Shown in pieces: positions 2,853 through 37,851 of a stretch of 38,149 nt of DNA. Both the position numbers and the translations under genes were made by a program. Location: positions 1-38,149 of the forward strand of contig CAYYXD010000002.1 in assembly GCA_964475575.1 (NCBI GenBank), in the 5' to 3' direction. Origin of the DNA: an uncultured Gammaproteobacteria bacterium (GTDB lineage Bacteria; Patescibacteriota; Patescibacteriia; Patescibacteriales; UBA12465). The notes under the pieces were generated by a model. That model was given only the letters and a program-made list of their open reading frames with translations. It did not search any database and had not been told where the DNA came from. Position 1 is the first letter of the stretch. Each line of letters begins with the position of its first letter.

Positions 2853-2946
2853 CGCAGACAGCCAGCTTTTAAGCTTAAAGCTTTATATAAGACTTGCCGA
2901 GATTTAAACATTTTTTGTTTTGTCTGCGTGGAAGCAGATTTTTTTT
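2853..2946 (+). promoter_or_regulatory. Structured rplJ leader (candidate L10-leader-type attenuator)
   Basis: An 8-bp closing helix CGCAGACA (2853-2860) / TGTCTGCG (2921-2928) encloses about 60 nt. Its 3' arm overlaps a small hairpin TCTGC (2923-2927) / GCAGA (2934-2938) that is followed by T8 (2939-2946). It sits between the promoter and the rplJ ATG. Confidence 0.4.
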
Positions 2947-2973
2947 ATACGTTTAATAATTAATTTAAATAAT

Positions 2974-3498: not shown

Positions 3499-3564
3499 TT
3501 TTTATATAATAATTAATTTAATATTTATTTAATATCTTTAGATTTTAAATAAATTAACAAAACT

Positions 3565-3975
3565 ATGGAAGACGAAAAAAAGAATATCGAAGTTCCAGCT
3601 AAATTTAAATCTTTAGTTGAAGAAATCGAAAAAATGAGTGTTTTAGATTTATCCGAATTAGTAAAAATTTTAGAGGACAAATTTGGTGTGTCAGCTGCTG
3701 CTCCAGCTATGATGGTTGGTGCTATGCCAGGAGTTGCTGTCGGAGCTGAAGCTGCTGAAGAAAAAACCAGTTTTGATGTTGAATTAACAGAAGGTGGTGC
3801 TAATAAAATTGCTGTTATTAAAGTTGTTAGAGAATTAACAGAAATGGGTTTAAAGGAAGCTAAAGATTTAGTTGATGGAGCTCCAAAAATGGTAAAAGAA
3901 GGAGTAAAAAAAGAAGATGCTGAGGCTATGAAAAAGAAATTAGAAGAAGCTGGAGGAAAGGTAACTTTAAAATAA
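3565..3975 (+). CDS. rplL: 50S ribosomal protein L7/L12
   Basis: Classic L7/L12 architecture: N-terminal dimerisation helix, Ala/Gly-rich hinge ([23 protein letters not shown]), and C-terminal domain [26 protein letters not shown]...[10 protein letters not shown]. Confidence 0.95.
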
Positions 3976-3991
3976 TTTTTCTTTACATAAT

Positions 3992-4026
3992 AAAAAAAGA
4001 AGTATGATTATCGTACTTCTTTTTTT
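3992..4026. terminator. Bidirectional rho-independent terminator (rplL / convergent membrane protein gene)
   Basis: The stem AGAAGTAT (3998-4005) pairs with GTACTTCT (4013-4020), including one G-U pair, with a 7-nt loop. An A-run precedes it and a T-run follows. Confidence 0.7.
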
Positions 4027-4042
4027 ATGTTTATTTTTTAAA

Positions 4043-6828: not shown

Positions 6829-8766
6829 ATGAAAATTAAAAAACTTCTACCAGGTTCTAGTTTAGGTAAAACTATTTTTATTGTTACGGCTATTGTTTTT
6901 TTAATTTTTATAATTTTCTCCGCTTTATTTTTTTTGAGAATTAAATCAATTTATAGTGATATTTCTTTTGGTCGAAAAAATTTAGATTATGCTTTAACCT
7001 ATATTAGCGAAGGTAATTTTAATAAAGCTAAACAATCAGCTAATCAAGCTACCAAGTATTTTGATTCAGTCGAAGATGATTTATCTAAGCTTCAAAATAA
7101 TTTTTTAATAAAAAATATAAGTTTTTTAAATGATAATTTATCTGATTTTAATTATTTAGCTAAGATAGCTAAAACCCTAAGTGATTCAGCTGATAGATCT
7201 TTAGGATTAGTAAATGAAACCAATAATCTTTTGTCAGGTCAGACAGTTAATAATTTTTCTGAATTATCAATTGATGATAAAATGAAGATATTAAAAAAAC
7301 TATATGAAAGTAGTCCTGAAATGCAGGGGATAAAAGCCAATATTGATTTAAGTTTATTTTATTTAAAAAAGATAGAAAATAATAAATTATTATCTCCATA
7401 TTCTGATTCTATAAAAAACTTAGAAGGGAAGTTAATTGGTGTTTCTGATTCTTTGAGTAAAATAATATCTTTAGCTTCTATTATTCCAGTTTTGACTGGT
7501 TATCCAGAACCAGTATCGTATTTAGTTATTTTACAAAATAGTAATGAACTTCGTCCTACGGGAGGATTTATTGGTACTTATGGAATTATAGAAGTTAAAT
7601 CTGGAGAAATAACTAAACTTCAAACTAATGATGTTTATCATTTAGATATGCCAGCTAGTTTAAACCCTGATTTTAAAGTTGAACCACCGGAAGCCATAAA
7701 GAAATATATTGGAACTGATTCTTGGTATATGCGTGATTCTAATTGGTCACCTGATTGGACAGTAAGTGCTAAAAAAATAGAATGGTTTTATCAACAAGAA
7801 ATGATAGCAGCTGGTCGATCATCAGAAATAATTGATTTTTCTGGAGTTATAGCTATTAATCCTAGAGTTATAACTGATTTATTATATTTCGTCGGTCCAA
7901 TTGAAATTAACGGACAAATCTATAATAAAGATAATTTTATTGAAATTTTACAATATGAAGTGGAGATGGCTTTTAAGAACAAAAATATTTCAGAATGGGA
8001 TAGAAAATCAATTATTAATGATATTTTAGAAGAAATGAAAAATAGATTATATAAATTATCAGCTGATAAATGGTTAGAATTAGGTAATATTTTAAATCAA
8101 AATATTAGTAGAAAAAATATTTTTGTTTATTTAAAAGACGATTATAATCGTCAAACATCTTCTAGTTTAAATTGGGATGGAGAAATAGAAAATGCTCCGC
8201 TTGATTATTTAATGGTAGTAGACGCTAATTTAGCAGCTTTAAAAACAGATCGAGTTATGGCTAAGAGTATTAAATATTATTTAGATCAAGAAGCTGATAA
8301 TAAATTTAAGGTTAGAGTTGAGATAATCTATAAAAATAATGGTTGGATAGATTGGCAAACAACTAGGTATAGAACCTTTACTCGAGTTTATGTTCCGTAT
8401 AATAGTGCTTTTGTTAATGTATCTGGTTTAACTGAAACAGTAAGTTCTTTGATTTATGATAATGAAATTTCTTATCCTAAAACTTATTGGTCCGGTTTTA
8501 TAGTAGTGGAACCTAAGGAAGAGAAAAAGGTTGTTTTTGAATATTATTTACCGACAGATATAAGTGAAGAAATAATTAAGAATAAAAAATATTCTTTATA
8601 TTTGCAAAAACAATCAGGTAATACAGCTGATAAATTTGAAGCTGAATTAAATTTTTATTCAAGTGTTAAATCTTTTAATGGGGAAGGTTCAGTTGAAGTA
8701 AAAAATAAAAAAGTTTTATGGTCTAATTCCTTAGATAAAGATTATAATTTAGAAATAATGTTTTAA
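6829..8766 (+). CDS. DUF4012 domain-containing membrane-anchored protein
   Basis: There is an N-terminal TM (IFIVTAIVFLIFIIFSALFFL). The hallmark block YLVILQNSNELRPTGGFIGTYGIIEVKSGEI matches DUF4012 as I recall it. The family is typically linked to envelope polysaccharide loci. Confidence 0.65.
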   Translation: MKIKKLLPGSSLGKTIFIVTAIVFLIFIIFSALFFLRIKSIYSDISFGRKNLDYALTYISEGNFNKAKQSANQATKYFDSVEDDLSKLQNNFLIKNISFLNDNLSDFNYLAKIAKTLSDSADRSLGLVNETNNLLSGQTVNNFSELSIDDKMKILKKLYESSPEMQGIKANIDLSLFYLKKIENNKLLSPYSDSIKNLEGKLIGVSDSLSKIISLASIIPVLTGYPEPVSYLVILQNSNELRPTGGFIGTYGIIEVKSGEITKLQTNDVYHLDMPASLNPDFKVEPPEAIKKYIGTDSWYMRDSNWSPDWTVSAKKIEWFYQQEMIAAGRSSEIIDFSGVIAINPRVITDLLYFVGPIEINGQIYNKDNFIEILQYEVEMAFKNKNISEWDRKSIINDILEEMKNRLYKLSADKWLELGNILNQNISRKNIFVYLKDDYNRQTSSSLNWDGEIENAPLDYLMVVDANLAALKTDRVMAKSIKYYLDQEADNKFKVRVEIIYKNNGWIDWQTTRYRTFTRVYVPYNSAFVNVSGLTETVSSLIYDNEISYPKTYWSGFIVVEPKEEKKVVFEYYLPTDISEEIIKNKKYSLYLQKQSGNTADKFEAELNFYSSVKSFNGEGSVEVKNKKVLWSNSLDKDYNLEIMF

Positions 8767-8771
8767 TTTAT

Positions 8772-10145
8772 ATGAATAATATTTTATATTCTAGAGACAG
8801 ATGGTTATTCATTTCGGTTTTATCAATACTTTTCTTGGTAGCTATAATTTTTAGTGCTTACAACTATATTGTTTCTTTTGTTATCTTAGCTTTTTTATTC
8901 ATAGTGGTATTGTTTTTTTTAAAACCTTTATCTGGTTTATATTTAATATCTTTATTCCTGCCCATTACCGGTTTAGCCGTAAATTATAAAGGGTTTGAAT
9001 TACCATTTATTGATTTATTATCAGTAGTTGTTTTAATTTCTTTTGTTGTTCGCCATGTTTATCTTTATTTCTTTTCTGATAAAAAAGAGGGATTAAAGTT
9101 TCCTGGGGGAATATATTTTCTTTTATTTTTCATATTTACTTTAATTTCTGGCCTGTTGAGTGATGGGATAATAACTCATCTTTGGTATTCTTTTCGTTGG
9201 ATTTTGTTTTTTTATTTAGCCTTTGTAGTCATGCCTTTTAATTTAATTAAAAATACTAAAATTTTACATCGAGTTATTATTTTTATTTCCTTAGGTGCTT
9301 CAGTTGTGGCTCTTATGAGTCTAGTTTCTTTGTTTTTACAAGATTGGTCTGATACTTTTTCACGGGTAACTCCCTTACCTATTTTTGGTCAATGGATATT
9401 TGGTGAAAATTATAATCTATTATCGGAATTTTTATCAATGTCAGCTTTTTTAATTTTAAGTTTAAAATATTGGGTTAAGGATTTAAGAGTTAATCGTTTT
9501 TTAAATTTATTATCAGCTTTCTTTATTTTATTAGTTTTTTTAACTTTTAGCCGAACTTCTTGGATTACTGTTTCTTTACAATTAATTCTATATTTTTTAA
9601 TATATAACTTTGTTATCAAAAGAAATAAAGTAAATGTTAAAGAAATTTTATTAGTACTATTTTTAATGTTTGTAATGATATTACCATTTTCAGTAAAGAT
9701 GATAAGTCTACAAGAAGCTAATTATAGTTCCACCGAAAATCGCACTTTATTAACTCAAATAGCCTGGGAAGCTTTTTTGGAAAAACCTTTTTTGGGATGG
9801 GGTAGTGGTAGTTTTGTTTCGTTAGTAGAGGATAATGTACGATTTGTAGCCAAATATGGTGATCCTTTAGATTCTCATGGTTTTGGTCAAAAAGTTTTAG
9901 CCGAGAACGGAATATTAGGAACTATAGCCTTTATTCTTTTTGTGGTAGTTATTTTTAATAGAATTTATTCAGGTGTTGTAAATAATAGGGAGGATTATAA
10001 ATTATTATTACCTTTATTCATTTCTTCTTTTGGAGTTTTTTTCTATCAAATTTTTAATACTTCCTATTACAAAGGACGAGTATGGTTACCGATAGCTATA
10101 GCTTTAATAGCCGTTAATTTAATTTCAAATAAGAATAAGAAATAA
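8772..10145 (+). CDS. O-antigen ligase/polymerase-like (Wzy_C domain) polytopic membrane protein
   Basis: About 10-12 hydrophobic segments. The TFSRTSWI motif and an extracytoplasmic loop containing GWGSGSF...DSHGFGQKVLAENGILG are typical of the Wzy_C family. Confidence 0.7.
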   Translation: MNNILYSRDRWLFISVLSILFLVAIIFSAYNYIVSFVILAFLFIVVLFFLKPLSGLYLISLFLPITGLAVNYKGFELPFIDLLSVVVLISFVVRHVYLYFFSDKKEGLKFPGGIYFLLFFIFTLISGLLSDGIITHLWYSFRWILFFYLAFVVMPFNLIKNTKILHRVIIFISLGASVVALMSLVSLFLQDWSDTFSRVTPLPIFGQWIFGENYNLLSEFLSMSAFLILSLKYWVKDLRVNRFLNLLSAFFILLVFLTFSRTSWITVSLQLILYFLIYNFVIKRNKVNVKEILLVLFLMFVMILPFSVKMISLQEANYSSTENRTLLTQIAWEAFLEKPFLGWGSGSFVSLVEDNVRFVAKYGDPLDSHGFGQKVLAENGILGTIAFILFVVVIFNRIYSGVVNNREDYKLLLPLFISSFGVFFYQIFNTSYYKGRVWLPIAIALIAVNLISNKNKK

Positions 10146-10146
10146 T

Positions 10147-11262
10147 ATGATTAATGGAAAAATAAAAATTATATATATTTTACCATCTCTATCCTCAGGA
10201 GGAGCTGAGAGAGTTACTTTAGATCTTATCTATAATTTAGATAGAAAAGTTTTTACTCCTGAATTATTATTATTTAATGGTGGAGGATTTTTTCATCAAG
10301 AAGCTTTATCTCACGGATTAAGGGTTGTTATTTTTAAAAAGAGATTTAAGTTTGATATTTTTAATTTTTTTAAAATATATAAATATATAAAAAATACTCA
10401 ACCAGATATAGTTCATACTGGATTAGGTGGTGATATTTATGGTAAAATAGCGGCTAAAATAGCTAAGATTAAAATTATTGTTTCTACTGAGCATAATGTA
10501 GCTATTAATGATAAAACAATAATTCGTCGTTTAAAAGGATTAACTGCTAAATGGTCAAATAAAATAGTGGCCATATCAGAATCAGTAAAAAAAGATATAT
10601 TAAGGGAGTATAAGATTCCATCTGAAAAAGTAGATTTAATTTATAATGGCTTATACGTTGATAATTTTAAAAAAGAAGAAAATCAAGATAGAATAAAAAA
10701 AGAATCCGATACTATAATTATTGGTTCAGTGGGTCGTTTAACTGAACAAAAAAACTTTTCTTTATTACTGAGAGCTTTAGATCAAGTGAAAAATAGAAAT
10801 TTTAAATGTTTGATTGTTGGAGAAGGAGAACTTAGATCTCAATTGGAACAAGAAATAAAAGATTTAGATTTAAGTAATAAAGTGAAATTATTAGGAATAA
10901 CATCAGATATTAATGGTTTTTTAAATAAACTTGATTTATTCGTTCTACCATCAAAATGGGAGGGTTTAGGAATTACTTTATTAGAAGCTGGTTTAGTAAA
11001 ACTACCAGTATTAGCTTCAGCTACTGGGGGAATAGTTGATATAATAAAACATAAAGAAAATGGTTTATTATTTAATAATAATGATTTAAGTAATTTAACA
11101 GATATGTTGAATGGTTGTTTAGATTTTAATAATAGAGAATATCTACTGAAATTAGGGGAAAAATTAAGTTATGACATAAGAGAAAGATTTGATATAAAGA
11201 AAACAAGTGGACAATACCAAGATATGTATAAAAAGTTAGTACAAGATAATATTTATAATTAA
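10147..11262 (+). CDS. Glycosyltransferase family 4 (GT-B fold)
   Basis: N-terminal SSGGAERV motif. C-terminal E-x7-E region SKWEGLGITLLEAGLVKLPVLASATGGIVDII. Confidence 0.85.
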   Translation: MINGKIKIIYILPSLSSGGAERVTLDLIYNLDRKVFTPELLLFNGGGFFHQEALSHGLRVVIFKKRFKFDIFNFFKIYKYIKNTQPDIVHTGLGGDIYGKIAAKIAKIKIIVSTEHNVAINDKTIIRRLKGLTAKWSNKIVAISESVKKDILREYKIPSEKVDLIYNGLYVDNFKKEENQDRIKKESDTIIIGSVGRLTEQKNFSLLLRALDQVKNRNFKCLIVGEGELRSQLEQEIKDLDLSNKVKLLGITSDINGFLNKLDLFVLPSKWEGLGITLLEAGLVKLPVLASATGGIVDIIKHKENGLLFNNNDLSNLTDMLNGCLDFNNREYLLKLGEKLSYDIRERFDIKKTSGQYQDMYKKLVQDNIYN

Positions 11263-19395: not shown

Positions 19396-19731
19396 ATGAC
19401 TACTAAAAAAGAAAACAATTTGGCTCTTTTTTCCGGACAAGAAATCCGTAGATTTTGGGATGAAAAACAAGAAAAATGGTATTTTTCGGTGGTTGATGTT
19501 GTTACTGTTTTAGCACAGACGGAAAGGTTAAGAAAATATTGGGATGATTTAAAGCGAAAAATAAAAGAAGAAGGTGGCCAGTTGTCCGAAAAAATCGGAC
19601 AACTGAAATTCTTGGCTAAAGATGGTAAATATTATCTATCAGACGCTGCGGATACCAAAACCGTTTTTAGAATTATTCGGTTATTTCTGGAAGAAAATTG
19701 TTATCTGGAAAGAAAAAAAGGTAGGTATTAA
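19396..19731 (+). CDS. Bro-N domain protein, short and probably decayed paralog of the next gene
   Basis: It aligns with the N-terminal ~95 aa of 19742-20566 (LALFSGQEIRRFWDEKQEKWYFSVVDVV vs IALFKGKKIRKTIHNKEWWFVIEDIV, and FRIIR vs FRIIQ). It lacks the SIPSPKAEPFKRWLA block and the whole DinD-like C-terminal half. Confidence 0.55.
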   Translation: MTTKKENNLALFSGQEIRRFWDEKQEKWYFSVVDVVTVLAQTERLRKYWDDLKRKIKEEGGQLSEKIGQLKFLAKDGKYYLSDAADTKTVFRIIRLFLEENCYLERKKGRY

Positions 19732-19741
19732 TTTTAAAATT

Positions 19742-20566
19742 ATGACCAAAGAAATTGAACAAATAGCCCTTTTCAAGGGTAAAAAAATTAGAAAAACTAT
19801 TCATAATAAAGAGTGGTGGTTTGTTATCGAAGATATAGTAGTGGTACTAACAGATTCTATTCAGCCAAAAGGATATATAAAGGACATAAGAAAACGTGAT
19901 AAAATTCTTTCCGAAGGGTGGGGGCAAATTGCCACCCCCCTTTCAATTTTAACTGATGGTGGACTTCAAAAATTAAATTGTGCTAATACTGAAGGAATAT
20001 TCCGTATTATTCAATCAATTCCATCACCCAAAGCCGAACCTTTTAAAAGATGGTTGGCTAAGGTGGGTTATGAAAGAATACAAGAAGTAGAGGATCCGGA
20101 ATTAGCCACTAAAAGAACTAGATTATTATACAAGTTAAAAGGTTATCCTGAAGATTGGATTGAAAAACGGATGCGTGGTATTGCTATTCGTGAAGAATTA
20201 ACTGATGAATGGCAAAAACGTGGAGCTCAAAAGAATAAAGATTATGAAATATTAACGGCAGAAATATCCCAAGCGACTTTTGGTTTGAAACCAAATGAAT
20301 ATAAAAAGGTAAAAGGATTAAAGAATAAAAATTTAAGGGATCATATGAATGATTTTGAATTAATTTTAACAATGCTTGGCGAAAGAACAACAACCGAAAT
20401 TCATCGTAGCGATAATTCTTTAGGTGTGGTAAAATTAAAAGATGATGCTAGAGTTGGGGGTTCAATCGCTGGTTCGGCTAGAAAACAAATAGAGAGGAAA
20501 ATCGGTCGTTCCATTATTTCTAAAAATAATTATTTAAAAAATAATAAAAAGAAGTTAATAAAATAA
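19742..20566 (+). CDS. Bro-N domain / DinD-like (DNA-damage-inducible protein D family) protein
   Basis: N-terminal Bro-N-like block. IPSPKAEPFKRWLAKVGYERI and the C-terminal KGLKNKNLRDHMNDFELILTMLGE...GSARKQIERKIGR resemble E. coli DinD as I recall it. I prefer ATG 19742, because the 19622 extension overlaps the previous gene in another frame. Confidence 0.7.
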   Translation: MTKEIEQIALFKGKKIRKTIHNKEWWFVIEDIVVVLTDSIQPKGYIKDIRKRDKILSEGWGQIATPLSILTDGGLQKLNCANTEGIFRIIQSIPSPKAEPFKRWLAKVGYERIQEVEDPELATKRTRLLYKLKGYPEDWIEKRMRGIAIREELTDEWQKRGAQKNKDYEILTAEISQATFGLKPNEYKKVKGLKNKNLRDHMNDFELILTMLGERTTTEIHRSDNSLGVVKLKDDARVGGSIAGSARKQIERKIGRSIISKNNYLKNNKKKLIK

Positions 20567-21705: not shown

Positions 21706-22614
21706 ATGAAATCAATTGAGATAAAAATGTATTTATTAATTCAAAAAATTAGAGAAACATTATTTTTTAGTTTTGACCCGACTATTAGAATGAAGATAGG
21801 GAAGAAGAAGTTATTTATTAATTTATCTCATAAACTTCCGATGCATTATTATAGATATAAAAATTATGACAAAGCTTTACCTAGAATTTGTCAACAATTA
21901 AAGAATATAGATAATTATTTAGGAGTGGTTGATATAGGAGCTAATATTGGTGATACAGTATCTTTAATAAATGATGAAGTGAATGGAAAATTTTTATGTA
22001 TAGAAGGAGATGATAAATTTTTTCCGATTTTAGAGAAAAATGTAAAATTAATCAAAGAACCGAGTTTAGTAAAGATAGAAAAATGTTATTGTGGTGATAA
22101 AGTTGATGATTTTTCAGTGATTAGAGAAAATGGAACAGCTAAAATAGTAAAAAATAAATTAAGTAATAATGATTTATTATCAGTGAAAACATTGGATGAT
22201 ATAATTGATAAAAATATGTCTTTTGGTCCTTTTAATGTTTTAAAAACAGATACTGATGGGTTTGAAATTGATGTTTTAAACGGTGGTAAAAATTTTTTAA
22301 AAGAACATAAACCATTAATATATTTTGAATTTACACCTCAATTATACGCTGCTAATAATCAAAATTATAAAGATATTTTTAATTTATTAAAAGAATGTGG
22401 TTATAAAGAATCTTTATTTTATGATAATTTTGGTGAAGTCATAAAAAAGATAAATATTGATGATTATAATGAAATTGAAGATATGGTAAATAGAATAGAT
22501 GAAAAAAATATATATTATTATGATATATTGATATATAATAAAGATAAAAACGGGTATTCCAAAATATTGGAATCCGAATTAAATTTATTTAAAAATAATG
22601 ACAAGCAAAACTAA
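21706..22614 (+). CDS. FkbM family methyltransferase
   Basis: VVDIGANIGDT and LKTDTDGFEIDVLNG motifs typical of the FkbM family. The stop overlaps the start of the next gene by 17 nt. Confidence 0.8.
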   Translation: MKSIEIKMYLLIQKIRETLFFSFDPTIRMKIGKKKLFINLSHKLPMHYYRYKNYDKALPRICQQLKNIDNYLGVVDIGANIGDTVSLINDEVNGKFLCIEGDDKFFPILEKNVKLIKEPSLVKIEKCYCGDKVDDFSVIRENGTAKIVKNKLSNNDLLSVKTLDDIIDKNMSFGPFNVLKTDTDGFEIDVLNGGKNFLKEHKPLIYFEFTPQLYAANNQNYKDIFNLLKECGYKESLFYDNFGEVIKKINIDDYNEIEDMVNRIDEKNIYYYDILIYNKDKNGYSKILESELNLFKNNDKQN

Positions 22615-23632
22615 ATCAATATTGATTATAAAATTGGATGCTATTGGAGATTATATATTATTTAGAAATTTTTTATCAGAAATAAAAAATAATGGTTATA
22701 GTATAACTTTTTTAGGTAATATAAAGATAAAAGATTTAGCAGAGGGTCTTGATAAGACGATTGTTGATAAGTTTATATGGTTTGATGTTGAAAAAAGAAA
22801 AAATATTTTTTATCTTTTCAAGATCTATTTTAAATTAATAAAAAAATTTAGTATTATTATTCAAGCTTCTTTTTCTAGAAGTTCTATTAGTGACTTTTTA
22901 GTTAAAATATCTAAAAGTAAATTAAAAATAGGTTTTAATGGAGATAATAATAATATTTCTGAAAAATATAAAAAAATAACTGATAAGTGGTATGATAAAT
23001 TAGTTGATATTGATAAAAAAAATGTTTTTGAATTTTATAAAAATAGAGAATTTTTTAGTGTTATCTTAAATAGGGAAATACAAATAAAAAAACCATTTAT
23101 TGATAAAACAATTATTAATTTAAATAAAATATCATTACCTGATAATTTTGTGGTATTATTTTCAGGGGCTTCAGCTGATAAAAGAAAATGGTCCAAAGAT
23201 AATTTTATAAAGATTTCTGAATATTTAATTAATAATTATAAATTTAATATTGTTGTTTGTGGCTCAGGTGAAGACAAAATCAGTTTTGAAAATGAAAAAT
23301 TTTTTGATATGACTGGAAAAACAAATTTAATGCAATTAGTATATATAATTTCAAAATCAAAATTAATTATTTTTAATGATACTAGTGGAGCTCATATTGG
23401 TGCAGCTCTTGATATTCCAACTATTGTTTTATCTCAGTTTAATCATTATGGTCGTTTTTTTCCTTATCCCCCTGAAATCAGTGAAAAAAATATTTGTTTA
23501 ACTCCTGATATTTTTAATAATTTAAGTAAAGAAGAATTAATTGATAAGTTTAAGTTTAATTCTGATATTGATATTTCATCGTTAAGTATTGATAAAGTCA
23601 AAAAAACAATTGATTTAATATTGAAAAAATAA
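22598..23632 (+). CDS. Glycosyltransferase family 9 (heptosyltransferase-like)
   Basis: N-terminal ILIIKLDAIGDYILF and C-terminal NDTSGAHIGAALDIPTIVL match GT9 signatures (compare ILIIRLSALGDV and GNDSGPMHLAAALG). Confidence 0.75.
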   Translation: MTSKTKSILIIKLDAIGDYILFRNFLSEIKNNGYSITFLGNIKIKDLAEGLDKTIVDKFIWFDVEKRKNIFYLFKIYFKLIKKFSIIIQASFSRSSISDFLVKISKSKLKIGFNGDNNNISEKYKKITDKWYDKLVDIDKKNVFEFYKNREFFSVILNREIQIKKPFIDKTIINLNKISLPDNFVVLFSGASADKRKWSKDNFIKISEYLINNYKFNIVVCGSGEDKISFENEKFFDMTGKTNLMQLVYIISKSKLIIFNDTSGAHIGAALDIPTIVLSQFNHYGRFFPYPPEISEKNICLTPDIFNNLSKEELIDKFKFNSDIDISSLSIDKVKKTIDLILKK

Positions 23633-23633
23633 T

Positions 23634-24417
23634 ATGAAAATTTCTGTTATTACTGTATGCTTTAATTCTGAAAAAACTATAGCTCGTACTATTGAGAGTG
23701 TTATTAATCAACATTATTCAGATTTAGAATATATAATAATAGATGGTGGTTCAAAAGATAAAACGGTAGAAATTATAAATAAATATAGAAACGAATTAAG
23801 TTATTTTATAAGTGAACCAGATCAAGGAATAAGTGATGCTTTTAATAAAGGAATAAGAGTCGCAACTGGAGATATTATTGGAATTATAAATAGTGATGAT
23901 TGGTATGAGAACGGTATTTTTAAATTAGTTAATGAAATGTTTTTACAAAATAAAGAAATTGATGTTTTAGTAGGGGCTTTACGTTATTGGGATGATAAAA
24001 AAAAACAATTTTATTGTTTATCCTGATAAAAATTATGAAAAATGTATTAATTATAGAATGCCTTGTCTTAATCATCCAACTGTTTTTGCGAAAGCTGAAG
24101 TTTATCGTTCCGTAGGATTATTTGATTTAAAATATCGTTATGCCATGGATTATGATTTTTTCGTTAGAGTATTTGAAGATGGAAAGAAAATAGTTTTTAT
24201 TGATAAGGTTTTATCTAATATGAGTCTTTCGGGGGCTTCTGATAAAAATGCTAGAAAAGCTTATTTAGAAACATTTCATATAGCTCCTAATAAAATAAAG
24301 TCTTTTATCTTTTTTATATATTCAGTTATAAAGTATTATATTCGTCTTTTTCTTATTTTTATTGGTTTAGATAAGTTGTTATTAAAAATAAGAAAGATAA
24401 AATATTTGAATAAATAA
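23634..24417 (+). pseudogene. Glycosyltransferase family 2, split by a frameshift in an A9 homopolymer
   Basis: ORF 23634-24026 carries the GT2 N-half (ISVITVCFNSEKTI, IIIDGGSKD, INSDD). ORF 23992-24417, in the +1 frame, carries the GT2 C-half (HPTVFAKAEVYRSVGLFDLKYRYAMDYDFFVRV). The two frames meet at A9 (23997-24005), and deleting one A fuses them. Confidence 0.75.
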
Positions 24418-24427
24418 TTTTAAAATA

Positions 24428-25516
24428 ATGAAAATAGGAATAAACTTAATTCAATATATAGATATTCAAGGAATAGAAGTTTTTACCAAAAATTTATTAA
24501 TGGATTTAGTTAAACAAGGATCAGAACATGAGTTTCTTTTTTTTGTTAATCAAGAATCGGCTAAAATATTTGATATTAAAGAACATAATGTCAAGCTTAT
24601 TATTAAGCATTTTAAAAAAATATCTAAAATAAGATTAATATTATATCAACAATTTGGTTTAATTAGAAAATTAAATAAAGAAAAAATTGATTTATTATAT
24701 TGTCCTTCGGTGGCTATACCAATTTTTTATAAAAAGAAAATAGTTACTGTTCATGATTGCGCTTCTTTAAGATTTAAAGACGAAGTTTCTTTAATATCTA
24801 AACTTTATTTGAAATTATCTTTTTGGTCAGTAAAAAATTTTTCTTTAAAAATTGTTACGGTTTCTGAATTTTCTAAATTAGAAATAAATAAATTATTAAA
24901 AATTCCACTAAATAAAATAATTATAATTTCTGAAGGTATTCCGGAATTGGCTAGTGTTAATGAAGATGTTATTAATAAAATTTTAAATAAATTTAATTTA
25001 ATAAATAAAAATTATTTCTTCTATATTGGTAATCAACGTCCAAGAAAGAATATCCAAAATTTATTAAAGGCTTGGAATGATTTTTCTAGTAAAAAAAGTA
25101 ATTATTATTTAATTATGGCTGGTAAGATTAATAATTTAGAAAATTTTAAGATTAATAATATTTATCCCATTGGAATTATTAGTGAGGAAGAAAAAACTTC
25201 TTTGTATAAAATGTCTAAAGCTTTAATTTTTCCATCTTTATATGAGGGTTTCGGTCTACCGGTTTTAGAAGCTCAAAGTCTTGGAGTTCCAGTTATAACT
25301 TCAAATATCAGTTCTTTACCAGAAATCTCAGGGAAAGGAGCAATTTTAGTTGATCCTGGAGACTATAAAGATATTTCGTTGGGTCTAGAAAAAATTAGTA
25401 ATCTAAATTTTAATAGAGAAGAATTAATAAATAAAGGTTATGAAAATTTAAAAAGATTTTCCTGGAGTAAAACAGTCTCAATTTTATTAAAAATTATAAA
25501 AAAATATGATATTTAA
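24428..25516 (+). CDS. Glycosyltransferase family 4 (GT-B fold)
   Basis: E-x7-E region PSLYEGFGLPVLEAQSLGVPVITSNISSLPEI. Confidence 0.85.
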   Translation: MKIGINLIQYIDIQGIEVFTKNLLMDLVKQGSEHEFLFFVNQESAKIFDIKEHNVKLIIKHFKKISKIRLILYQQFGLIRKLNKEKIDLLYCPSVAIPIFYKKKIVTVHDCASLRFKDEVSLISKLYLKLSFWSVKNFSLKIVTVSEFSKLEINKLLKIPLNKIIIISEGIPELASVNEDVINKILNKFNLINKNYFFYIGNQRPRKNIQNLLKAWNDFSSKKSNYYLIMAGKINNLENFKINNIYPIGIISEEEKTSLYKMSKALIFPSLYEGFGLPVLEAQSLGVPVITSNISSLPEISGKGAILVDPGDYKDISLGLEKISNLNFNREELINKGYENLKRFSWSKTVSILLKIIKKYDI

Positions 25517-26642
25517 AAAATACTATAGTTTAATAATAAAAATATTATCATATCTAAAAATAGATTTATTTAATTTAAAGTATATTGTAATAAAATTATT
25601 TAAGTTTATTTTTTCTATTATTTTATTACCAATTGAAATATTGGGTGACATGATTTTTTCTTATAAAAGATTATTTAGTTTTAATATTTCCGATCCTAAA
25701 AAAATATTAATAATAAAAATTGATCAAATGGGTGATGTTCTTTTTTCTACTATGCTTTTGCCTTTAATAAAAGAAAAATATCCTCAAAGTGAAATAGATT
25801 ATGTAATTAATAAAAAGGCAGAACAAATTTTAATAGCTAATCCACATGTTAATAATATTTATTATTGGCAGAGTTTTATTTTAAATAATGTTCCAGGACG
25901 AGGAAAATTTTCTTTTATTTCTTGGAAAAATAATTTATCAACTTGGAGAATGTTAAAACAACAAAAATATGATATTATTATAAATGCTAGATCTTTTATC
26001 CCTAGTGGTAATTTATCTTGGAAATTTTTAAACCCCAAAAAACTTATAGCTTTTAATATTAGTCAGCAAAGCTTTTTAGCTGATAATATTGTTTCATATA
26101 ATCTATATGCTGAAGAATGGCAAAATTATTTAAATCTTTTAAAACCTTTAGGTATAAACAAAATAGAAGGGGAACCACGATCTGAATTTTATAATATTTC
26201 AGATTGTAATATTGAGTCTGAAAATTTGGCCATTATTTCTCCAATTAGTTTTAATTCAGAAAGAAGTTGGTCTTTGGAAAAATGGATTAAAGCTGTTAAA
26301 ATTTTAATTAAAAAAAACTATCTAGTAATTTTAATAGGAACAAGAGAACAAAAAGAATGTTTAGAAAAAATAAAAGGTGATACTAATAGTTTAATATTTA
26401 TAGATTCTATTCCTAAATTAGCTGATTTAATAAAAAAAGCTGATTTATTTTTAGGAGTAGAGTCTTTTCCAGCTCATTTAGCTCTTACTTTTAAGATTAA
26501 ATTATTTTCCGTAGTTAATACTAAATTATTTTATGTTTCTGGAAAAAGTAAGCATAAGATAATTGATGGTCGTTCTATGTTATCACAATTTTCAAATGTT
26601 AAAATAATTGATTTAAATGAAAATCCTGAAGATGTTTTATAA
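25506..26642 (+). CDS. Glycosyltransferase family 9-like protein (second copy, divergent)
   Basis: ILIIKIDQMGDVLFSTMLLPLIKEKYP is the GT9 N-terminal signature. The C-terminal GVESFPAHLALTF resembles the GT9 donor-binding block. It has an extra N-terminal hydrophobic segment. Confidence 0.65.
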   Translation: MIFKKYYSLIIKILSYLKIDLFNLKYIVIKLFKFIFSIILLPIEILGDMIFSYKRLFSFNISDPKKILIIKIDQMGDVLFSTMLLPLIKEKYPQSEIDYVINKKAEQILIANPHVNNIYYWQSFILNNVPGRGKFSFISWKNNLSTWRMLKQQKYDIIINARSFIPSGNLSWKFLNPKKLIAFNISQQSFLADNIVSYNLYAEEWQNYLNLLKPLGINKIEGEPRSEFYNISDCNIESENLAIISPISFNSERSWSLEKWIKAVKILIKKNYLVILIGTREQKECLEKIKGDTNSLIFIDSIPKLADLIKKADLFLGVESFPAHLALTFKIKLFSVVNTKLFYVSGKSKHKIIDGRSMLSQFSNVKIIDLNENPEDVL

Positions 26643-33230: not shown

Positions 33231-34451
33231 ATGAAAATATTACAAGTTAATAAATTTAATTATATTAGAGGAGGAGCTGAAAAATATTTTTTAGAAATAG
33301 GTGAAGAATTAAAAAAGGCTGGACATCAGGTAGCTTTCTTTTCAATGAAACATCCAAAGAATTTACCTAGTCCTTGGGAAAAGTATTTTGTTTCTCGTAT
33401 TAGTTTTAATGAAGGAACTTGGCGGGATAGTTTATTAGCTCCAGGTAGAATAATATATAGTTTTGAAGCTAAACGTAAATTTTCTAAATTAGTAGAAGAT
33501 TTTAAACCAGATATAATACATATTCATAATATTTATCATCAAATATCTCCATCAATTTTGTCAGTAGCTATAAAGAAAAAGATTCCAGTAGTTATGCATC
33601 TTCATGATTATAAATTGGTTTGTCCTAATTATCAATTATTTGTTAATAATAAAATATGTTATCGTTGTTGGCCTAAAAAATATAGTCAATGTTTTAAAAA
33701 TTGTTGTTTTAAAAATTCTGTAATTAAAAGTTTATTAGCTACTATTGAAATGTGGTTTCATCATAAGGTTTTGAAGATTTATGAAAAAAGTATTTCTTGT
33801 TTTATAGCACCAAGTAAATTTATGAAAGAAACTCTAATTAAATTTAATTGGCCAGAAGATAAAATAAAAGTTATATATAATTTTTCAGAAAAGATGGAAA
33901 ATAATTTTGTTGATAAATTAGAAAATTATGGTTTATACTATGGTCGTTTATCAAAGGAGAAGGGAATAGATATATTATTACGAGCAATAAAAAAATCAAA
34001 CAATAATTTTACACTTAAAATAGTTGGTTCGGGACCAGAAGAAAAAAATTTAAAAGAATTATCTAATACTTTAGGATTAAATAAACAAGTTGAATTTTTA
34101 GGTTTTAAATCAGGAAATGATTTATATGATATTGTAAAAAAAGCTAAGGCAATATTTTTACCATCTATTTGGAATGAAAATATGCCTTTTGTATTATTGG
34201 AAGCTTTGTCATTAAAAAAAGTTGTTGTGGTTTCTAGAACTGGTGGATTACCAGAGTTAATAACTAATAAAGATACTGGATTCATATTTGAAAATGGTAA
34301 TGAAGAAGAATTAGCTGATATAATAAAAAATTTAAATCAATATGATTTAAAAAAAATAGGTGAAAAAGCTCATGAAATTAGTCGAGATCTTAATGTAAAT
34401 AACCATTTAGTAAAAATATTGGAAATATATAATAAGTTATTAAAAAACTAA
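33231..34451 (+). CDS. Glycosyltransferase family 4 (GT-B fold)
   Basis: N-terminal RGGAEKYF. The E-x7-E region is PSIWNENMPFVLLEALSLKKVVVVSRTGGLPELI. Confidence 0.85.
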   Translation: MKILQVNKFNYIRGGAEKYFLEIGEELKKAGHQVAFFSMKHPKNLPSPWEKYFVSRISFNEGTWRDSLLAPGRIIYSFEAKRKFSKLVEDFKPDIIHIHNIYHQISPSILSVAIKKKIPVVMHLHDYKLVCPNYQLFVNNKICYRCWPKKYSQCFKNCCFKNSVIKSLLATIEMWFHHKVLKIYEKSISCFIAPSKFMKETLIKFNWPEDKIKVIYNFSEKMENNFVDKLENYGLYYGRLSKEKGIDILLRAIKKSNNNFTLKIVGSGPEEKNLKELSNTLGLNKQVEFLGFKSGNDLYDIVKKAKAIFLPSIWNENMPFVLLEALSLKKVVVVSRTGGLPELITNKDTGFIFENGNEEELADIIKNLNQYDLKKIGEKAHEISRDLNVNNHLVKILEIYNKLLKN

Positions 34452-34496
34452 TAAAAATATCTAAAAAGTGCTTTTTATCTTTATTTGTCAAGGTAC

Positions 34497-34525
34497 TTGA
34501 CATTTTTTTTTAAATATGTTAAAAT
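34497..34525 (+). promoter_or_regulatory. Sigma70-type promoter upstream of the Wzz-like gene
   Basis: TTGACA (34497-34502), a 17-nt spacer, then TAAAAT (34520-34525) with an extended -10 TG at 34517-34518. The -35 box lies inside the palindrome TGTCAAGGTACTTGACA (34486-34502). Confidence 0.55.
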
Positions 34526-34595
34526 TAATCGTTGTATAAATAAAATTTTTGTGTTTTATTTTATAAATTAAAAATTTTAGATAACAAATAATAAT

Positions 34596-35414
34596 ATGGA
34601 TTTAATCGGTTTATTAAAACAAAAACGTCAAACAATAATATCAGTTTTTTTAATTTTATTAGTTATAGGTTTACTTTTCTTGTTAACTCAGAATTTTAAA
34701 TATGGAACAAAATCTAAGATATTAGTAATTCAAGAGGGAGCTGGTAAAGTTGATCCTTATTCTGTCTCTCGATCAGTAGAATATTTATCTGATTTATTTT
34801 CTAAAGTTATTTATTCTAATGCTTTTTTTGAATCAGTTATGAACTCTGATTTTGACATTGATAAGAGTTATTTTGGTGAAGACTATAATGATATGATGAA
34901 GAATTGGAAAAAAACAGTTTCTACTAAAACTTTAGAAGATTCTGGAATTATGGTTATTAGTGTTTATCATGAAGATAATTATCAAGCTACTCAAATTGCT
35001 TTAGCCGTTAATCATGTTTTAATCAATGAACATCAAAATTATCATGGTTTAGGCAATTCAGTAAAACTTAGTATTATTGATCAACCAGTAACTTCTAATT
35101 ATCCAATTAAACCAAATTTAGTTTATTATTTTATAGTACTTATTTCAGTTAGTTTATTTATTAGTTTAATATATATTTATCTTTTTCCAGAAAGAAAGTA
35201 TGACATTAATTTTTTTGGAGAACAAAAACCAAAAAAGATAATACTTGAAAAAGAGATTAAACAGAATATTAGTAATAATATATCAAAGGTAGAATTAAAA
35301 AATAAAGCAAGTGAAAATAATAATATAGAAGATGTAGAAATAGAAGATGTAAAAGAAACTATTAACTATAATGAAATAAGAAAATCGGGTGATATCAGTA
35401 ATTTATTTGAGTAA
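34596..35414 (+). CDS. Wzz-like polysaccharide co-polymerase (chain-length determinant) protein
   Basis: N-terminal TM (IISVFLILLVIGLLFLL) and C-proximal TM (LVYYFIVLISVSLFISLIYIYLF) flank a ~130-aa loop, which is the PCP topology. There is no kinase domain. The position next to Wzx/Wzy-type genes supports the call. Confidence 0.55.
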   Translation: MDLIGLLKQKRQTIISVFLILLVIGLLFLLTQNFKYGTKSKILVIQEGAGKVDPYSVSRSVEYLSDLFSKVIYSNAFFESVMNSDFDIDKSYFGEDYNDMMKNWKKTVSTKTLEDSGIMVISVYHEDNYQATQIALAVNHVLINEHQNYHGLGNSVKLSIIDQPVTSNYPIKPNLVYYFIVLISVSLFISLIYIYLFPERKYDINFFGEQKPKKIILEKEIKQNISNNISKVELKNKASENNNIEDVEIEDVKETINYNEIRKSGDISNLFE

Positions 35415-35438
35415 TATTATTTAATTAATAATATAAAA

Positions 35439-35517
35439 GTTCTTTGACAAATATTCCTTCTTAATGATTTATATTTAAAAGGTCTTTAAATAGAGATTTT
35501 TTAAATATAAATCATTA
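35439..35517 (+). promoter_or_regulatory. Conserved 79-nt leader element, copy 1 (long hairpin)
   Basis: Perfect 19-bp inverted repeat at 35462-35480 / 35499-35517 around the spacer GGTCTTTAAATAGAGATT. 73 of 79 nt are identical to 36531-36609. It lies 43 nt upstream of ATG 35560. Confidence 0.5.
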
Positions 35518-35559
35518 AAGTTAAAAAAATTATAAAAAATAACAAGGAGGAAATAAAAA

Positions 35560-36423
35560 ATGTCAAAAATAATGAGAATATTAGTAGTGGTATTATTTGT
35601 ATTATTATGTAATGTCAAAGCTCAGGATGATCCAGAAAGATTTAACATTAGCTATGGGATGCATAATACCATAGGTGACCAAAGGATGTTATCCGGAGGT
35701 GACTCAATCGTCAAGGTTGGATCTGGAGTTAAACACTCCGTTTCCGGTGAAGTCTTCTTAGGTAATCGCATTTATCGACCAGGAATTTATTCCCAATATA
35801 GTAATTCCAATTTTTTGACTCAACAATTTGAAGCTCAAAAATCTTGGAACTTTTCAGTGGGAATTATTTCCCAAATAAACTTGGGACCGGTGGAAGCAAA
35901 AATTTATACAGGTTATTTCCATAAAGATCTAAAAATTTCTGGGTACGATTCTGAATCCAAAAAGTTTTCGGATTCGTCAAAGATTAATGGTCTTGATCTG
36001 GGTGTTAATTTAATTATTGCCCAACAAGATATCAACTTGTTTCCGAAGATTGAACTTTTTGGTAACGGAAAGTTTCAATTCTCGAGAAATATGTCGGGGA
36101 AGATAGTTCCAAAAGGTTATTCTTTTGGAGCTAATGTAGAAATTTATCGAATTTCTTTCTTTGATTATTATATATCTCCTTTTTTGGGAGTATACAAGAT
36201 GGAAGAAATGAGTAGCTATAAGAATTTGATTTATAAACTTGGTGTTTCTCTCAACAATAACATTGTTAGAAGCGATATTGCTAAGGTGGGAGTATTCCTA
36301 TCTTGGAATAATGAAGTTTATAATTACCAAAGTTCTGACTACAATTATTCGGTAAAAAATGCTAATATAGGAATTTTCCTACAATTTAGTCCTACAGGCC
36401 TATTTTCGCAATATGTGAGATAA
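35560..36423 (+). CDS. Secreted beta-strand-rich protein, paralog A (OMP-like beta-barrel candidate, unknown family)
   Basis: Strong SD AAGGAGG at 35544-35550. Signal peptide MSKIMRILVVVLFVLLCNVKA-QD. Alternating hydrophobic/polar strands run throughout. It shares blocks with 36639-37523 (INGLDLGVNL..FPKIELF, FGANVEIYRI..DYYISP). Confidence 0.7.
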   Translation: MSKIMRILVVVLFVLLCNVKAQDDPERFNISYGMHNTIGDQRMLSGGDSIVKVGSGVKHSVSGEVFLGNRIYRPGIYSQYSNSNFLTQQFEAQKSWNFSVGIISQINLGPVEAKIYTGYFHKDLKISGYDSESKKFSDSSKINGLDLGVNLIIAQQDINLFPKIELFGNGKFQFSRNMSGKIVPKGYSFGANVEIYRISFFDYYISPFLGVYKMEEMSSYKNLIYKLGVSLNNNIVRSDIAKVGVFLSWNNEVYNYQSSDYNYSVKNANIGIFLQFSPTGLFSQYVR

Positions 36424-36441
36424 ATCTTACATGAAATTTAT

Positions 36442-36480
36442 AAGGATTCTGTTTTTCAATAAAAACTAGAATCCTTTTTT
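36442..36480 (+). terminator. Rho-independent terminator after paralog A
   Basis: AAGGATTCT (36442-36450) pairs with AGAATCCTT (36468-36476). An inner helix GTTTTT/AAAAAC extends the stem. A T-run follows. Confidence 0.8.
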
Positions 36481-36495
36481 ATTTTTGTCAAGGTA

Positions 36496-36524
36496 TTGAC
36501 AAGAATAATCCTTTATGATACAAT
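36496..36524 (+). promoter_or_regulatory. Consensus sigma70-type promoter of paralog B
   Basis: TTGACA (36496-36501), a 17-nt spacer, then TACAAT (36519-36524) with an extended -10 TG at 36516-36517. The -35 box lies inside the palindrome TGTCAAGGTATTGACA (36486-36501). The predicted TSS is near 36531. Confidence 0.65.
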
Positions 36525-36530
36525 GTAAAT

Positions 36531-36609
36531 GTTCTTTAATAAACATTCCTTGCTAATGATTTATATCTAAAAGGTCTTTAAATAGAGATTTTTTAAATAT
36601 AAATCATTA
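36531..36609 (+). promoter_or_regulatory. Conserved 79-nt leader element, copy 2 (long hairpin)
   Basis: The 19-nt arms at 36554-36572 / 36591-36609 have one C-A mismatch. The spacer is identical to copy 1. The element begins at the predicted TSS. Confidence 0.5.
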
Positions 36610-36638
36610 GTTAACAAAATAATCAAAAAAAAGGAATC

Positions 36639-37523
36639 ATGAAAACAAAGACATTAGTAGCATTAGCAATAATATTGACAATTGCAACAACCGTAGAAGG
36701 CGGAAGAAGGTATAATAGTAGAAAAATAAAGACTGGGGAAAGATTCTCTCTGAGTTATGACATTCAGAGCTTGAATATGAAAAGCAGTAAAGATTTAATC
36801 CATCATCTTGATGGAGAGGTGTTCTTTTTACCCACAACTAATAAAGTAAATGTGGGAGCCTTCTTGGAGGGCCATAAAGGAGGAGTGTTCGTAGCTAATA
36901 ATAGTGAAGATCAAAAGTATATATCTTTTGGTCCGAGCTTGAAGTTTCAATCTGAAAAGTTTGAAACTACATTAAAAGCCGGATACTTTCTCCAAAAGAA
37001 AGAGATATTTTACAAAGGTGATGTCATAGAAACCAACAATTTAAATGGTCTTGATCTTGGAGTAAATATCAATTTACTCCAAAACGATTTCAAATTCGTT
37101 CCGAAAATAGAATTATTTGTGGAAACAAAGATTGAATTTAGTAAAAAATACTTTCAATTTAATAATGAAGATGAAGGTATTAATGAAATTAAAAGTATCG
37201 TAACCACAAGTATCTGCAACTATCAATTTGGAGTAAATGTTCATTTGTATAGGATTAATTTAGGAGATTATTATATGTCTCCTATGATCGGACTGGAAAA
37301 ATCCGAATCCTTTACTAGAAAAAACTTATTCCAAATAAAGGCCGGAATGAGTTTAAATAATGGAGTAACAACAAGCAATATTTTTCAAGTTGGAATCTCA
37401 TTATCATTCTATAATAATGGCTACTATCAAACAATTGAGGGTGAAAGCACTATCAGCCCTTGTATGTTTGGAGTGTATATGAAGATCAATCCTTCGGGAT
37501 TTTTTATCCATAGGGTAAAATAA
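36639..37523 (+). CDS. Secreted beta-strand-rich protein, paralog B (OMP-like beta-barrel candidate, unknown family)
   Basis: Signal-like N-terminus MKTKTLVALAIILTIATTVEG. Blocks shared with paralog A include ERFSLSY, DGEVFF, LNGLDLGVNI..VPKIELF, FGVNVHLYRI..DYYMSP, and SLNN...VGISLSF. Confidence 0.7.
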   Translation: MKTKTLVALAIILTIATTVEGGRRYNSRKIKTGERFSLSYDIQSLNMKSSKDLIHHLDGEVFFLPTTNKVNVGAFLEGHKGGVFVANNSEDQKYISFGPSLKFQSEKFETTLKAGYFLQKKEIFYKGDVIETNNLNGLDLGVNINLLQNDFKFVPKIELFVETKIEFSKKYFQFNNEDEGINEIKSIVTTSICNYQFGVNVHLYRINLGDYYMSPMIGLEKSESFTRKNLFQIKAGMSLNNGVTTSNIFQVGISLSFYNNGYYQTIEGESTISPCMFGVYMKINPSGFFIHRVK

Positions 37524-37549
37524 AAGGAATCACAATGATTCCTTTTTTT
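37522..37549. terminator. Bidirectional terminator between paralog B and rpmA
   Basis: AAGGAATC (37524-37531) pairs with GATTCCTT (37537-37544) with a 5-nt loop. T7 follows on the + strand, and a T-rich run follows on the - strand. Confidence 0.75.
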
Positions 37550-37575: not shown

Positions 37576-37851
37576 TTACTTTACAACATTAACAATTTTA
37601 CTTTTTTGTAATTTACCATCAAATTTTAAAAGTTTTTTTGTTCTAAACTTTACTGTGCCTGAAGCGACAGCAAATAATGTATCATCTTTTCCTTTTTTTA
37701 CATTTTCTCCAGGATGATATTTAGTTCCACGTTGACGTATAATAATATTACCGATCTTAGCTTTTTGGCCATCGGATAATTTTACACCTAAACGTTTACT
37801 TTCTGAATCTCGACCTAACGAGGTTGATCCGGCTGAATTTTTGTGTGACAT
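37576..37851 (-). CDS. rpmA: 50S ribosomal protein L27
   Basis: [24 protein letters not shown]...[16 protein letters not shown]...DDTLFA..G.VKF is the canonical L27 sequence. Confidence 0.95.

Follow-up and report, generated by a model that had tools for sequence, protein, structure and literature searches.

Transmembrane β-barrels are the characteristic proteins of outer membranes and depend on an insertase dedicated to them. Bacteria of the Candidate Phyla Radiation (CPR, or Patescibacteria) account for a large part of bacterial diversity and are regarded as monoderms in which the outer membrane has been lost together with its barrels and tethers. What, then, would two tandem genes for exported, barrel-like proteins be doing at the end of a surface-glycan cluster in such an organism? 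We address this question for the genes barA and barB, found near one end of a 38,149-nucleotide contig (CAYYXD010000002.1), the whole of which is called the window below. The reading that we favor, and to which we give a probability of roughly 0.45, is that the two barrels would be surface-exposed pores or anchors, lodged in a hydrophobic layer beyond the cytoplasmic membrane, and would probably serve the adjacent glycan pathway. The two genes are as follows.

35560-36423, + strand: barA, 287 aa, exported, predicted 12-stranded β-barrel of the outer-membrane protein (OMP) type; signal peptide about residues 1-21 (MSKIMRILVVVLFVLLCNVKA, followed by QD)
36639-37523, + strand: barB, 294 aa, paralogue of barA, predicted 12-stranded OMP-type β-barrel; signal peptide about residues 1-21, then a basic linker

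A small family of exported proteins

Both open reading frames (ORFs) are present exactly where the original prediction had placed them. The two products are 31% identical from end to end in a pairwise alignment (E 3e-30). Orthologues of similar length occur in other metagenomes, and barA and barB are therefore real genes rather than chance ORFs. A word-indexed search of 5.8 billion protein clusters returned six barA-type and four barB-type clusters, and a profile search of 1.84 billion representatives at 50% identity returned 23 relatives at E≤1e-3, 18 of them at E≤1e-10; the weakest profile matches, P0029 and P0030, were probably spurious and were excluded. A search with an alignment of 10 sequences found a close relative in only one species representative of the GTDB genomes and in five metagenome contigs from JGI. 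All 28 aligned members of the family are 230-295 residues long, and they have in common a set of glycines and an NPxGLF motif near the C-terminus. The G+C content is about 24-29% across the barA/barB region, as in the remaining window, with no compositional break.

Every one of the 28 members also begins with M(K)K and a hydrophobic stretch, usually followed by A/G-Q, which bears out the signal sequence originally proposed for both proteins. In the AlphaFold2 models the N-terminus of both barrels is a detached helix. From these features each protein is strongly predicted to be made with a cleavable Sec signal peptide. A lipoprotein reading was considered for barA and rejected, as its signal peptide contains a Cys that is not conserved and that lacks a lipobox.

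That the family was not recognised at first sight also held up, as no meaningful match was found in Pfam, NCBIfam or the sequences of the PDB. Neither barA nor barB matched any Pfam family at E≤1, and when all 28 members were compared with Pfam at E≤10 only single, non-significant matches were obtained (DUF3575, Porin_7 and Autotransporter). The best E value in a profile search of PDB sequences with the barrel family was 0.37. The NCBIfam family TDE1717 (NF049866) was rejected as an assignment: 5 of 27 members match it, the best at E 2.6e-5, and in two members that were re-scanned the match covered residues 1-80 or 1-35, that is, the signal peptide with the first of the strands, and scored 17-21 bits where the cut-off is 135 bits. 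Our search of the literature on β-barrels, porins or BamA in Patescibacteria, CPR or Saccharibacteria found no description of such a family. By sequence comparison, barA and barB are paralogues in a small, undescribed family restricted to one sub-lineage of the CPR. The family, though of a well-known fold class, is new to the databases searched.

Structure models point to a 12-stranded barrel

The original prediction had taken both proteins to be OMP-like, with a soluble β-sandwich or jelly-roll as the alternative fold. We modeled both with AlphaFold2 and compared the models with known structures using Foldseek; an OMP-like fold was obtained, and neither of the soluble folds was encountered. 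For barB, with an alignment of 27 sequences, the pLDDT (predicted local distance difference test) was 83 and the predicted template modeling (pTM) score 0.75, and the five models, at pLDDT 81-83, were concordant. For barA, with 10 sequences, the corresponding values were 73.5 and 0.69, again with 12 strands, and one of the five models reached only 37.6. Both models consist of the N-terminal helix, 12 antiparallel strands, mostly of 13-20 residues and mostly joined by short turns, and a short C-terminal helix.

At E≤1e-3 Foldseek returned 192 matches in the PDB for barA and 67 for barB, and the best 50 for each model are all integral outer-membrane barrels. The leading matches are the 12-stranded β-domains of the autotransporters Hbp, EspP, BrkA, NalP and EstA (E 1e-7 to 1e-8, template modeling (TM) scores of 0.44-0.51, 8-12% sequence identity), behind which come FadL/TodX, OpcA, LpxR, FapF, OmpG, AlgE and PgaA. 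When the barB model was compared with the viral library BFVD, essentially all significant matches were likewise OMP-type barrels. From the models, each protein is predicted to be a monomeric, 12-stranded, antiparallel barrel of the OMP type, with a hydrophobic outer face and long hairpins extending from one end; closure of the barrel and its embedding in a membrane are part of the same prediction.

The strands themselves have the expected character. All of the peptides that had been quoted as amphipathic at the outset (FNISYGM, SVSGEVFLG, WNFSVGIISQINL, GLDLGVNLII, KIELFGNGKFQFS, YSFGANVEIYRISF and VGVFLSW) fall in predicted strands. Across 27 sequences all 12 strands show a two-residue alternation of hydrophobic and polar positions, with about 56-79% hydrophobic residues on one face and 17-44% on the other. 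The mean Kyte-Doolittle value over the same sequences is +0.88 for one face and -0.77 for the opposite one, the faces being compared here as a pair; the hydrophobic face carries few charges. Nearly invariant glycines sit inside strands 3, 4, 6, 9, 10 and 12: G101 is invariant, while G75, G144, G210, G228 and G271, all within strands, are kept in at least 90% of the sequences. The last strand follows the pattern G-x-x-hydrophobic-x-hydrophobic, like the core of the β-signal recognised by the β-barrel assembly machinery (BAM), and is followed by about 12 more residues containing the NPxGLF motif and a short helix. As had been observed, no aromatic residue ends either chain (…QYVR in barA, …HRVK in barB).

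These data also bear on whether the proteins are in the membrane at all. They could instead be soluble or wall-associated β-proteins, glycan-binding or S-layer-like, with the closed barrel an over-interpretation by AlphaFold of an amphipathic meander. The shallow alignments, the low-scoring barA model, the modest TM-scores (0.4-0.5) with their large rmsd, the lack of a terminal aromatic residue and an organism expected to be without an outer membrane would all fit this view, and the two-residue alternation, which occurs in soluble β-proteins too, does not discriminate. On the other hand, there is agreement among five independent models of barB, each paralogue by itself yields 12 long strands, of up to 20 residues and with mostly short turns, no soluble sandwich, propeller or lipocalin-type fold is among the best 50 PDB matches of either model, and the conserved glycines within strands are typical of membrane barrels. 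We regard a soluble protein as unlikely.

The contig is assigned to the CPR

Housekeeping proteins encoded in the window are L10, L7/L12, ribosome recycling factor (RRF), hibernation promoting factor (HPF), SecA, an RseP-type protease and L27. With two proteins named "Patescibacteria group bacterium" the SecA sequence has an identity of 83%, with "Candidatus Dojkabacteria" 77% and with "Candidatus Falkowbacteria" or "Parcubacteria" 67-69%, and its best 120 matches are dominated by CPR names, many of them on contigs of 0.5-1 Mb. Among SecAs of known structure, those of Bacillus, Thermotoga, Mycobacterium and E. coli score alike (750-793 bits); RRF has no close homologue of known structure (best about 115 bits). 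Genes for DUF4012 and for a DUF8128/TrwB-type ATPase recur in the related contigs. Because of the best matches of SecA, assignment of the contig to the Patescibacteria/CPR is supported by sequence comparison, and the CPR-like character that had been proposed from gene content and compactness is borne out.

SecA, RRF, L7/L12 and L27 are bacterial proteins. Two database labels were rejected: "Candidatus ainarchaeum sp." on the window's RRF (MDD3085396.1, a DPANN archaeon) and "uncultured Gammaproteobacteria" on the related contig L010 (the GTDB relative). The contig of the window is clearly bacterial and CPR-like, with SecA nearest to the CPR. Such metagenome-assembled genomes appear to be mis-binned or mislabelled, possibly as a result of their shared, very low G+C.

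The CPR have been described as monoderms from which porins and the tethers of the outer membrane have been lost (10.1101/2021.05.31.446380), are treated as monoderms elsewhere (10.64898/2026.03.03.709456), and are viewed as obligate epibionts without an outer membrane of their own (10.1101/2021.05.31.446380; 10.64898/2026.03.03.709456). No gene for outer-membrane biogenesis was found in the 38-kb window or in the related contigs, which cover a small part of the genome.

The barrel genes follow a Wzz-like gene

Two further genes frame the barrel locus.

34596-35414, + strand: Wzz/polysaccharide co-polymerase (PCP)-like protein, 272 aa, two putative transmembrane segments; match to Pfam Wzz below threshold
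37576-37851, - strand: L27 (rpmA), convergent with barB

The Wzz-like protein matches Pfam Wzz (PF02706) at 20.5 bits, the cut-off being 25.5 (E 6e-4), and such a sub-threshold match is seen in all six of the Wzz-like orthologues compared (E 2e-4 to 6e-4). Its hydrophobic segments lie at about residues 14-31 and 176-197, with a weak GNVR match at the second; a search against PDB sequences gave no match. Orthologues with 58-93% identity lie upstream of the barrel gene or genes in eight related contigs (L005, L007, L010, L012, L014, L016, L017 and L019). The variable cytoplasmic tail of this protein ends in an invariant GDIxNLF(E) in six of six orthologues (about 35385-35411 in the window), which may be a docking peptide for a cytoplasmic partner. 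There is no BY-kinase gene near the Wzz-like gene.

In every related contig with enough flanking sequence the order is the same: the Wzz-like gene, one to three barrel genes, and then the convergent L27 gene. Further downstream, longer contigs carry a ferredoxin gene, a conserved ORF of about 170 aa and the DUF8128/TrwB ATPase gene. The position of the barrels next to the Wzz-like gene, first pointed out for the window, is thus kept across the family, with an intervening ORF in L016. In L014 and L016 the genes for DUF4012, Wzy_C, two GT4 glycosyltransferases, the Wzz-like protein and the barrel or barrels are contiguous apart from one or two additional ORFs at most, the barrels closing the cluster; it also has a helix-turn-helix gene before that for DUF4012 (L016 only) and a gene for a 456-aa secreted protein before the Wzz-like gene (L014 only). 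In L012 unrelated genes stand in place of the upstream glycosyltransferases, and the Wzz-like and barrel genes are still together. It is chiefly because of this conserved pairing that we argue for a functional link between the barrels and the glycan pathway.

In the window the DUF4012-Wzy_C-GT4 part of the cluster (6829-11262) lies about 22 kb from the part at 33231-37523. The block between them includes non-glycan genes (holB and genes for a BNR protein, RRF, RseP, HPF, SecA, a Bro-N protein and PspC/LiaF-like proteins) and a second glycan set (an FkbM methyltransferase, two GT9, GT2, GT4, Wzx, a phosphoglycosyl transferase and Wzy_C-TPR). The window therewith holds a full Wzx/Wzy set, consisting of a phosphoglycosyl transferase, GT2/GT4/GT9 enzymes, Wzx and Wzy_C. 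Among the window ORFs scanned, no LCP protein and no Wza-type outer-membrane polysaccharide export (OPX) component was seen.

The barrels diverge faster than their neighbors

The proteins of the window were compared with those of the more distant contigs L011, L012, L014 and L016. Identities to the window protein were:

Barrels: 25-35%
Wzz-like protein: 58-69%
GT4: 62-66%
DUF4012: 50-52%
L27: 77-81%

Variation on a much shorter time scale is seen in L002 and L023, two contigs from one JGI metagenome. Both of their flanks are 90-100% identical in nucleotide sequence, and barB is 42-82% identical, or 60% in protein. A third contig, L019, likewise has a divergent barB in near-identical flanks. 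The allelic differences cluster in the hairpins b3-b4, b5-b6 and b7-b8; conservation is seen in strands 2 and 9 and in the connections b6-b7 and b11-b12. The number of barrel genes per locus varies from one to three. The variation of barB resembles that of a gene whose alleles are being replaced, or of a surface-exposed protein under diversifying selection.

Each barrel gene has its own expression signals

The following elements surround the two genes.

35439-35559, + strand: barA 5' leader, with GTTCTTTGACAAA box, anti-Shine-Dalgarno (anti-SD) ATTCCTT, long hairpin (core 35462-35517), A-rich spacer and GGAGG Shine-Dalgarno (SD) sequence
36442-36486, + strand: intrinsic terminator of barA, 15-bp stem with one bulge, the hairpin at 36442-36476, then a T-run; -13.7 kcal/mol, z -5.1
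36496-36524, + strand: barB promoter, near-consensus sigma-70 (TTGACA-17-TACAAT, extended -10 TG), 11 of 12 matches
36531-36638, + strand: barB 5' leader, same architecture as that of barA, hairpin core 36554-36609
37522-37546, between the convergent barB and rpmA: terminator hairpin of 11 bp followed by a T-run, which probably acts in both directions

The presence of a separate leader and terminator at each gene, as originally claimed, was confirmed for barA as well as barB. The two leaders hardly differ, even though identity between the proteins is no more than 31%: the 56-nt hairpin core occurs in nearly the same form at 35462-35517 and at 36554-36609 (two occurrences in the window vs 0.00 expected). 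The barA leader folds at -32.1 kcal/mol (z -6.9), with the anti-SD ATTCCTT paired to the SD; for the barB leader the value is -30 kcal/mol (z -7.2), and the partner of ATTCCTT is AAGGAAT, located at the start codon. The SD itself is GGAGG for barA and weaker for barB. No Rfam family matched the leaders at gathering thresholds or at E≤1.

The hairpin, of about 25 bp and accompanied by a GTTCTTT box and ATTCCTT, also precedes barrel genes in L005, L007, L010, L014, L016 and L017; this structured leader is particular to the barrel genes. In L017_B, L014_B and L016 it is kept with a different sequence (z -5.6 to -6.8), and RNAalifold identified nine pairs with double changes; judged from these alignments, the hairpin is maintained by compensatory change in distant loci. 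In three genomes (the window, L005 and L007) genome-specific variants are common to the A and B leaders, a pattern that suggests concerted evolution or gene conversion. The 5' structure may stabilise the mRNA or gate translation.

A promoter equivalent to that of barB lies before the B copy or the single copy in L005, L007, L014, L016 and L017. No good promoter was found upstream of barA; the TTGACA in the GTTCTTTGACAAA box was rejected as a -35 element, since the hexamer is not conserved in barB and has no suitably spaced -10. Each barrel gene is strongly predicted to be its own transcription unit, and the layout would be that of a strongly expressed gene for an envelope protein.

Possible role of the barrels

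In the reading that we favor, the barrels would after export become part of a hydrophobic layer external to the cytoplasmic membrane and, exposed on the surface of the cell, would act there as pore, anchor or both. They would probably be the outer export or anchoring component for the neighboring glycan; this we propose because they always come after the homologue of the Wzz co-polymerase and, in longer contigs, at the end of the Wzx/Wzy cluster. Phage, host or competitors would select on the hairpins that are exposed, and the rapid, allele-swapping evolution would reflect this.

Several observations weigh against this reading. The CPR have no known outer membrane or BAM insertase, so that no membrane or assembly route for the barrels is known. 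The C-terminal aromatic residue typical of BAM substrates is missing from both chains, and the TM-scores to solved barrels are only 0.4-0.5. High expression is read from sequence signals alone, and with a leader and terminator for each barrel gene, and a separate promoter for barB, these genes are not obviously co-transcribed with those for the glycan. An unrelated ORF of 139 aa stands between barrel and Wzz-like gene in L016. The carriers of the locus are moreover fairly close relatives (L27 77-100% identical; SecA 96% in one shared contig), and the argument from adjacency is therefore weakened; conserved adjacency may be inheritance instead of functional coupling.

A CPR epibiont might instead direct the barrels at its host, secreting them into the host envelope (the outer membrane of a diderm or an archaeal membrane) as a pore for nutrient uptake or an attachment anchor where the cells touch; they would then not be residents of its own envelope. 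The obligately epibiotic life of the CPR without an outer membrane of their own is in keeping with this, as is the confinement of the family to a narrow clade, which is expected of host-specific factors; the very fast evolution and the replacement of barB alleles between near-identical strains would fit an arms race with the host. However, the entire mature chain is barrel in the AlphaFold2 models, with no soluble domain for delivery or receptor binding, and the constant pairing with a Wzz-like membrane protein is left unexplained. The secreted pore formers known so far start as soluble monomers that come together in an oligomeric barrel; a monomeric 12-stranded barrel that is secreted and inserts itself would, to our knowledge, be without precedent. 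We judge a host-directed function to be improbable, to about the same degree as a soluble protein.

Ordinary diderm OMPs, from a contig that is not of a monoderm CPR or from a sub-lineage that retains an outer membrane with BAM, could be suspected from the non-CPR public label of L010, from the two GT9 (heptosyltransferase-family) and several Wzy_C/O-antigen-ligase-like genes in the window and from the resemblance, which is one of pattern only, of the last strand to the BAM β-signal core, but are very unlikely given the 83% identity of SecA to named Patescibacteria proteins and the mostly CPR names among its best 120 matches, the similar scores of E. coli and other solved SecAs, an RRF without a close solved homologue, the conserved synteny with the CPR-typical genes for DUF4012 and the DUF8128/TrwB ATPase, a G+C of about 25% throughout with no break at the barrel genes, the missing terminal aromatic residue, and the lack of any gene for outer-membrane biogenesis in the retrieved contigs, a small part of the genome.

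A bolder proposal, which we consider possible but doubtful, is that this CPR sub-lineage makes true transmembrane barrels in abundance, whether in an unrecognised outer hydrophobic layer served by no known insertase or as monomeric barrels planted in a host membrane as an interface pore. Such a layer, built around the fast-evolving 12-stranded barrels, might take the form of a sheath like the toga or of an outer membrane, either left over or invented anew.

Comparison with known systems

The autotransporter (type Va) β-domains of EspP, Hbp, BrkA, NalP and EstA are likewise 12-stranded monomeric barrels of about 250-300 residues, and conserved glycines in the strands are common to them and to barA and barB. 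Unlike autotransporters, barA and barB have no passenger domain and no pore-filling linker helix, the mature chain starting about 5-15 residues before strand 1. There is no sequence relation (a single member of the 28 is matched by PF03797, at E = 2), neither chain ends in an aromatic residue, and the lineage is CPR rather than diderm. OpcA, LpxR, FapF, the invasin β-domain and OmpG, which also appear in the Foldseek lists, are of similar size, with 10-14 strands that are long and reach beyond the membrane; they differ in having no sequence similarity to barA and barB, nor any checkable catalytic or plug feature in common with them, and in their lineage and genomic context.

With respect to genomic position a parallel is provided by the barrels for polysaccharide export or anchoring in diderms (Wzi, AlgE, PgaA/BcsC), of which AlgE and PgaA are among the structural matches of barA. 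Like diderm export components, barA and barB stand at the end of a Wzx/Wzy-type cluster, right after a PCP (Wzz)-like gene. In the Wzx/Wzy pathways of Myxococcus, β-barrel porins are partnered with OPX and PCP proteins. By analogy, barA and barB would take the slot that Wza, Wzi or β-barrel porins fill in diderm clusters. Wzi, AlgE, PgaA and BcsC differ in having 16-18 strands and, in some cases, extra periplasmic domains, and the matches are weaker (TM-scores of 0.27-0.37). Unlike diderm export loci, moreover, the locus has no OPX (Wza) gene seen in the window, the organism no recognised outer membrane, and the barrels are predicted to be separate transcription units.

As to where a barrel could reside in the CPR, a possible model comes from other Terrabacteria, to which the CPR also belong. 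The toga of Thermotoga, with its Ompβ arrays, and SlpA of Deinococcus form a sheath, largely of abundant β-barrel proteins, around the wall (10.1101/2022.09.22.508938). Thermotoga and Deinococcus differ in that they encode BamA and tethers of the SLH/OmpM type and that their barrels are larger and trimeric; no homology to barA or barB was detected.

The barrel family, which is conserved, apparently highly expressed and variable at the surface, offers a clonable handle on the composition of the outer layer of ultra-small bacteria, on the exit of their surface glycan and on their contact with hosts, and it bears on models of outer-membrane loss and gain in Terrabacteria. If the proteins are soluble, or if the lineage has BAM, the finding reduces to a new family of OMPs or β-proteins.

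Other features of the window

Two GT9 genes (22598-23632 and 25506-26642) belong to the glycan cluster of this presumed monoderm; GT9 is best known from synthesis of the lipopolysaccharide core. Between them, a GT2 domain (23634-24026) ends after 130 aa and is followed by an overlapping ORF of 141 aa in another frame (23992-24417); the region 23634-24417 has the appearance of a GT2 gene that is split or has a frameshift, or of a fault in the assembly.

Just downstream of secA, at 19396-20566, a Bro-N (BRO family) protein of 314 aa overlaps an ORF of 111 aa. Bro-N proteins are typical of phages and mobile elements, and this gene may be what is left of mobile DNA within a CPR genome.

At the other end of the window (2920-6106), rplJ and rplL are followed not by rpoB and rpoC but by a reverse-strand ORF of 687 aa, which has one internal transmembrane segment and no Pfam match. 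In the relatives L007, L012 and L016, secE-nusG-rplK-rplA lies on the other side of the barrel locus in the opposite orientation. This arrangement suggests that an inversion broke the usual order secE-nusG-rplKAJL-rpoBC.

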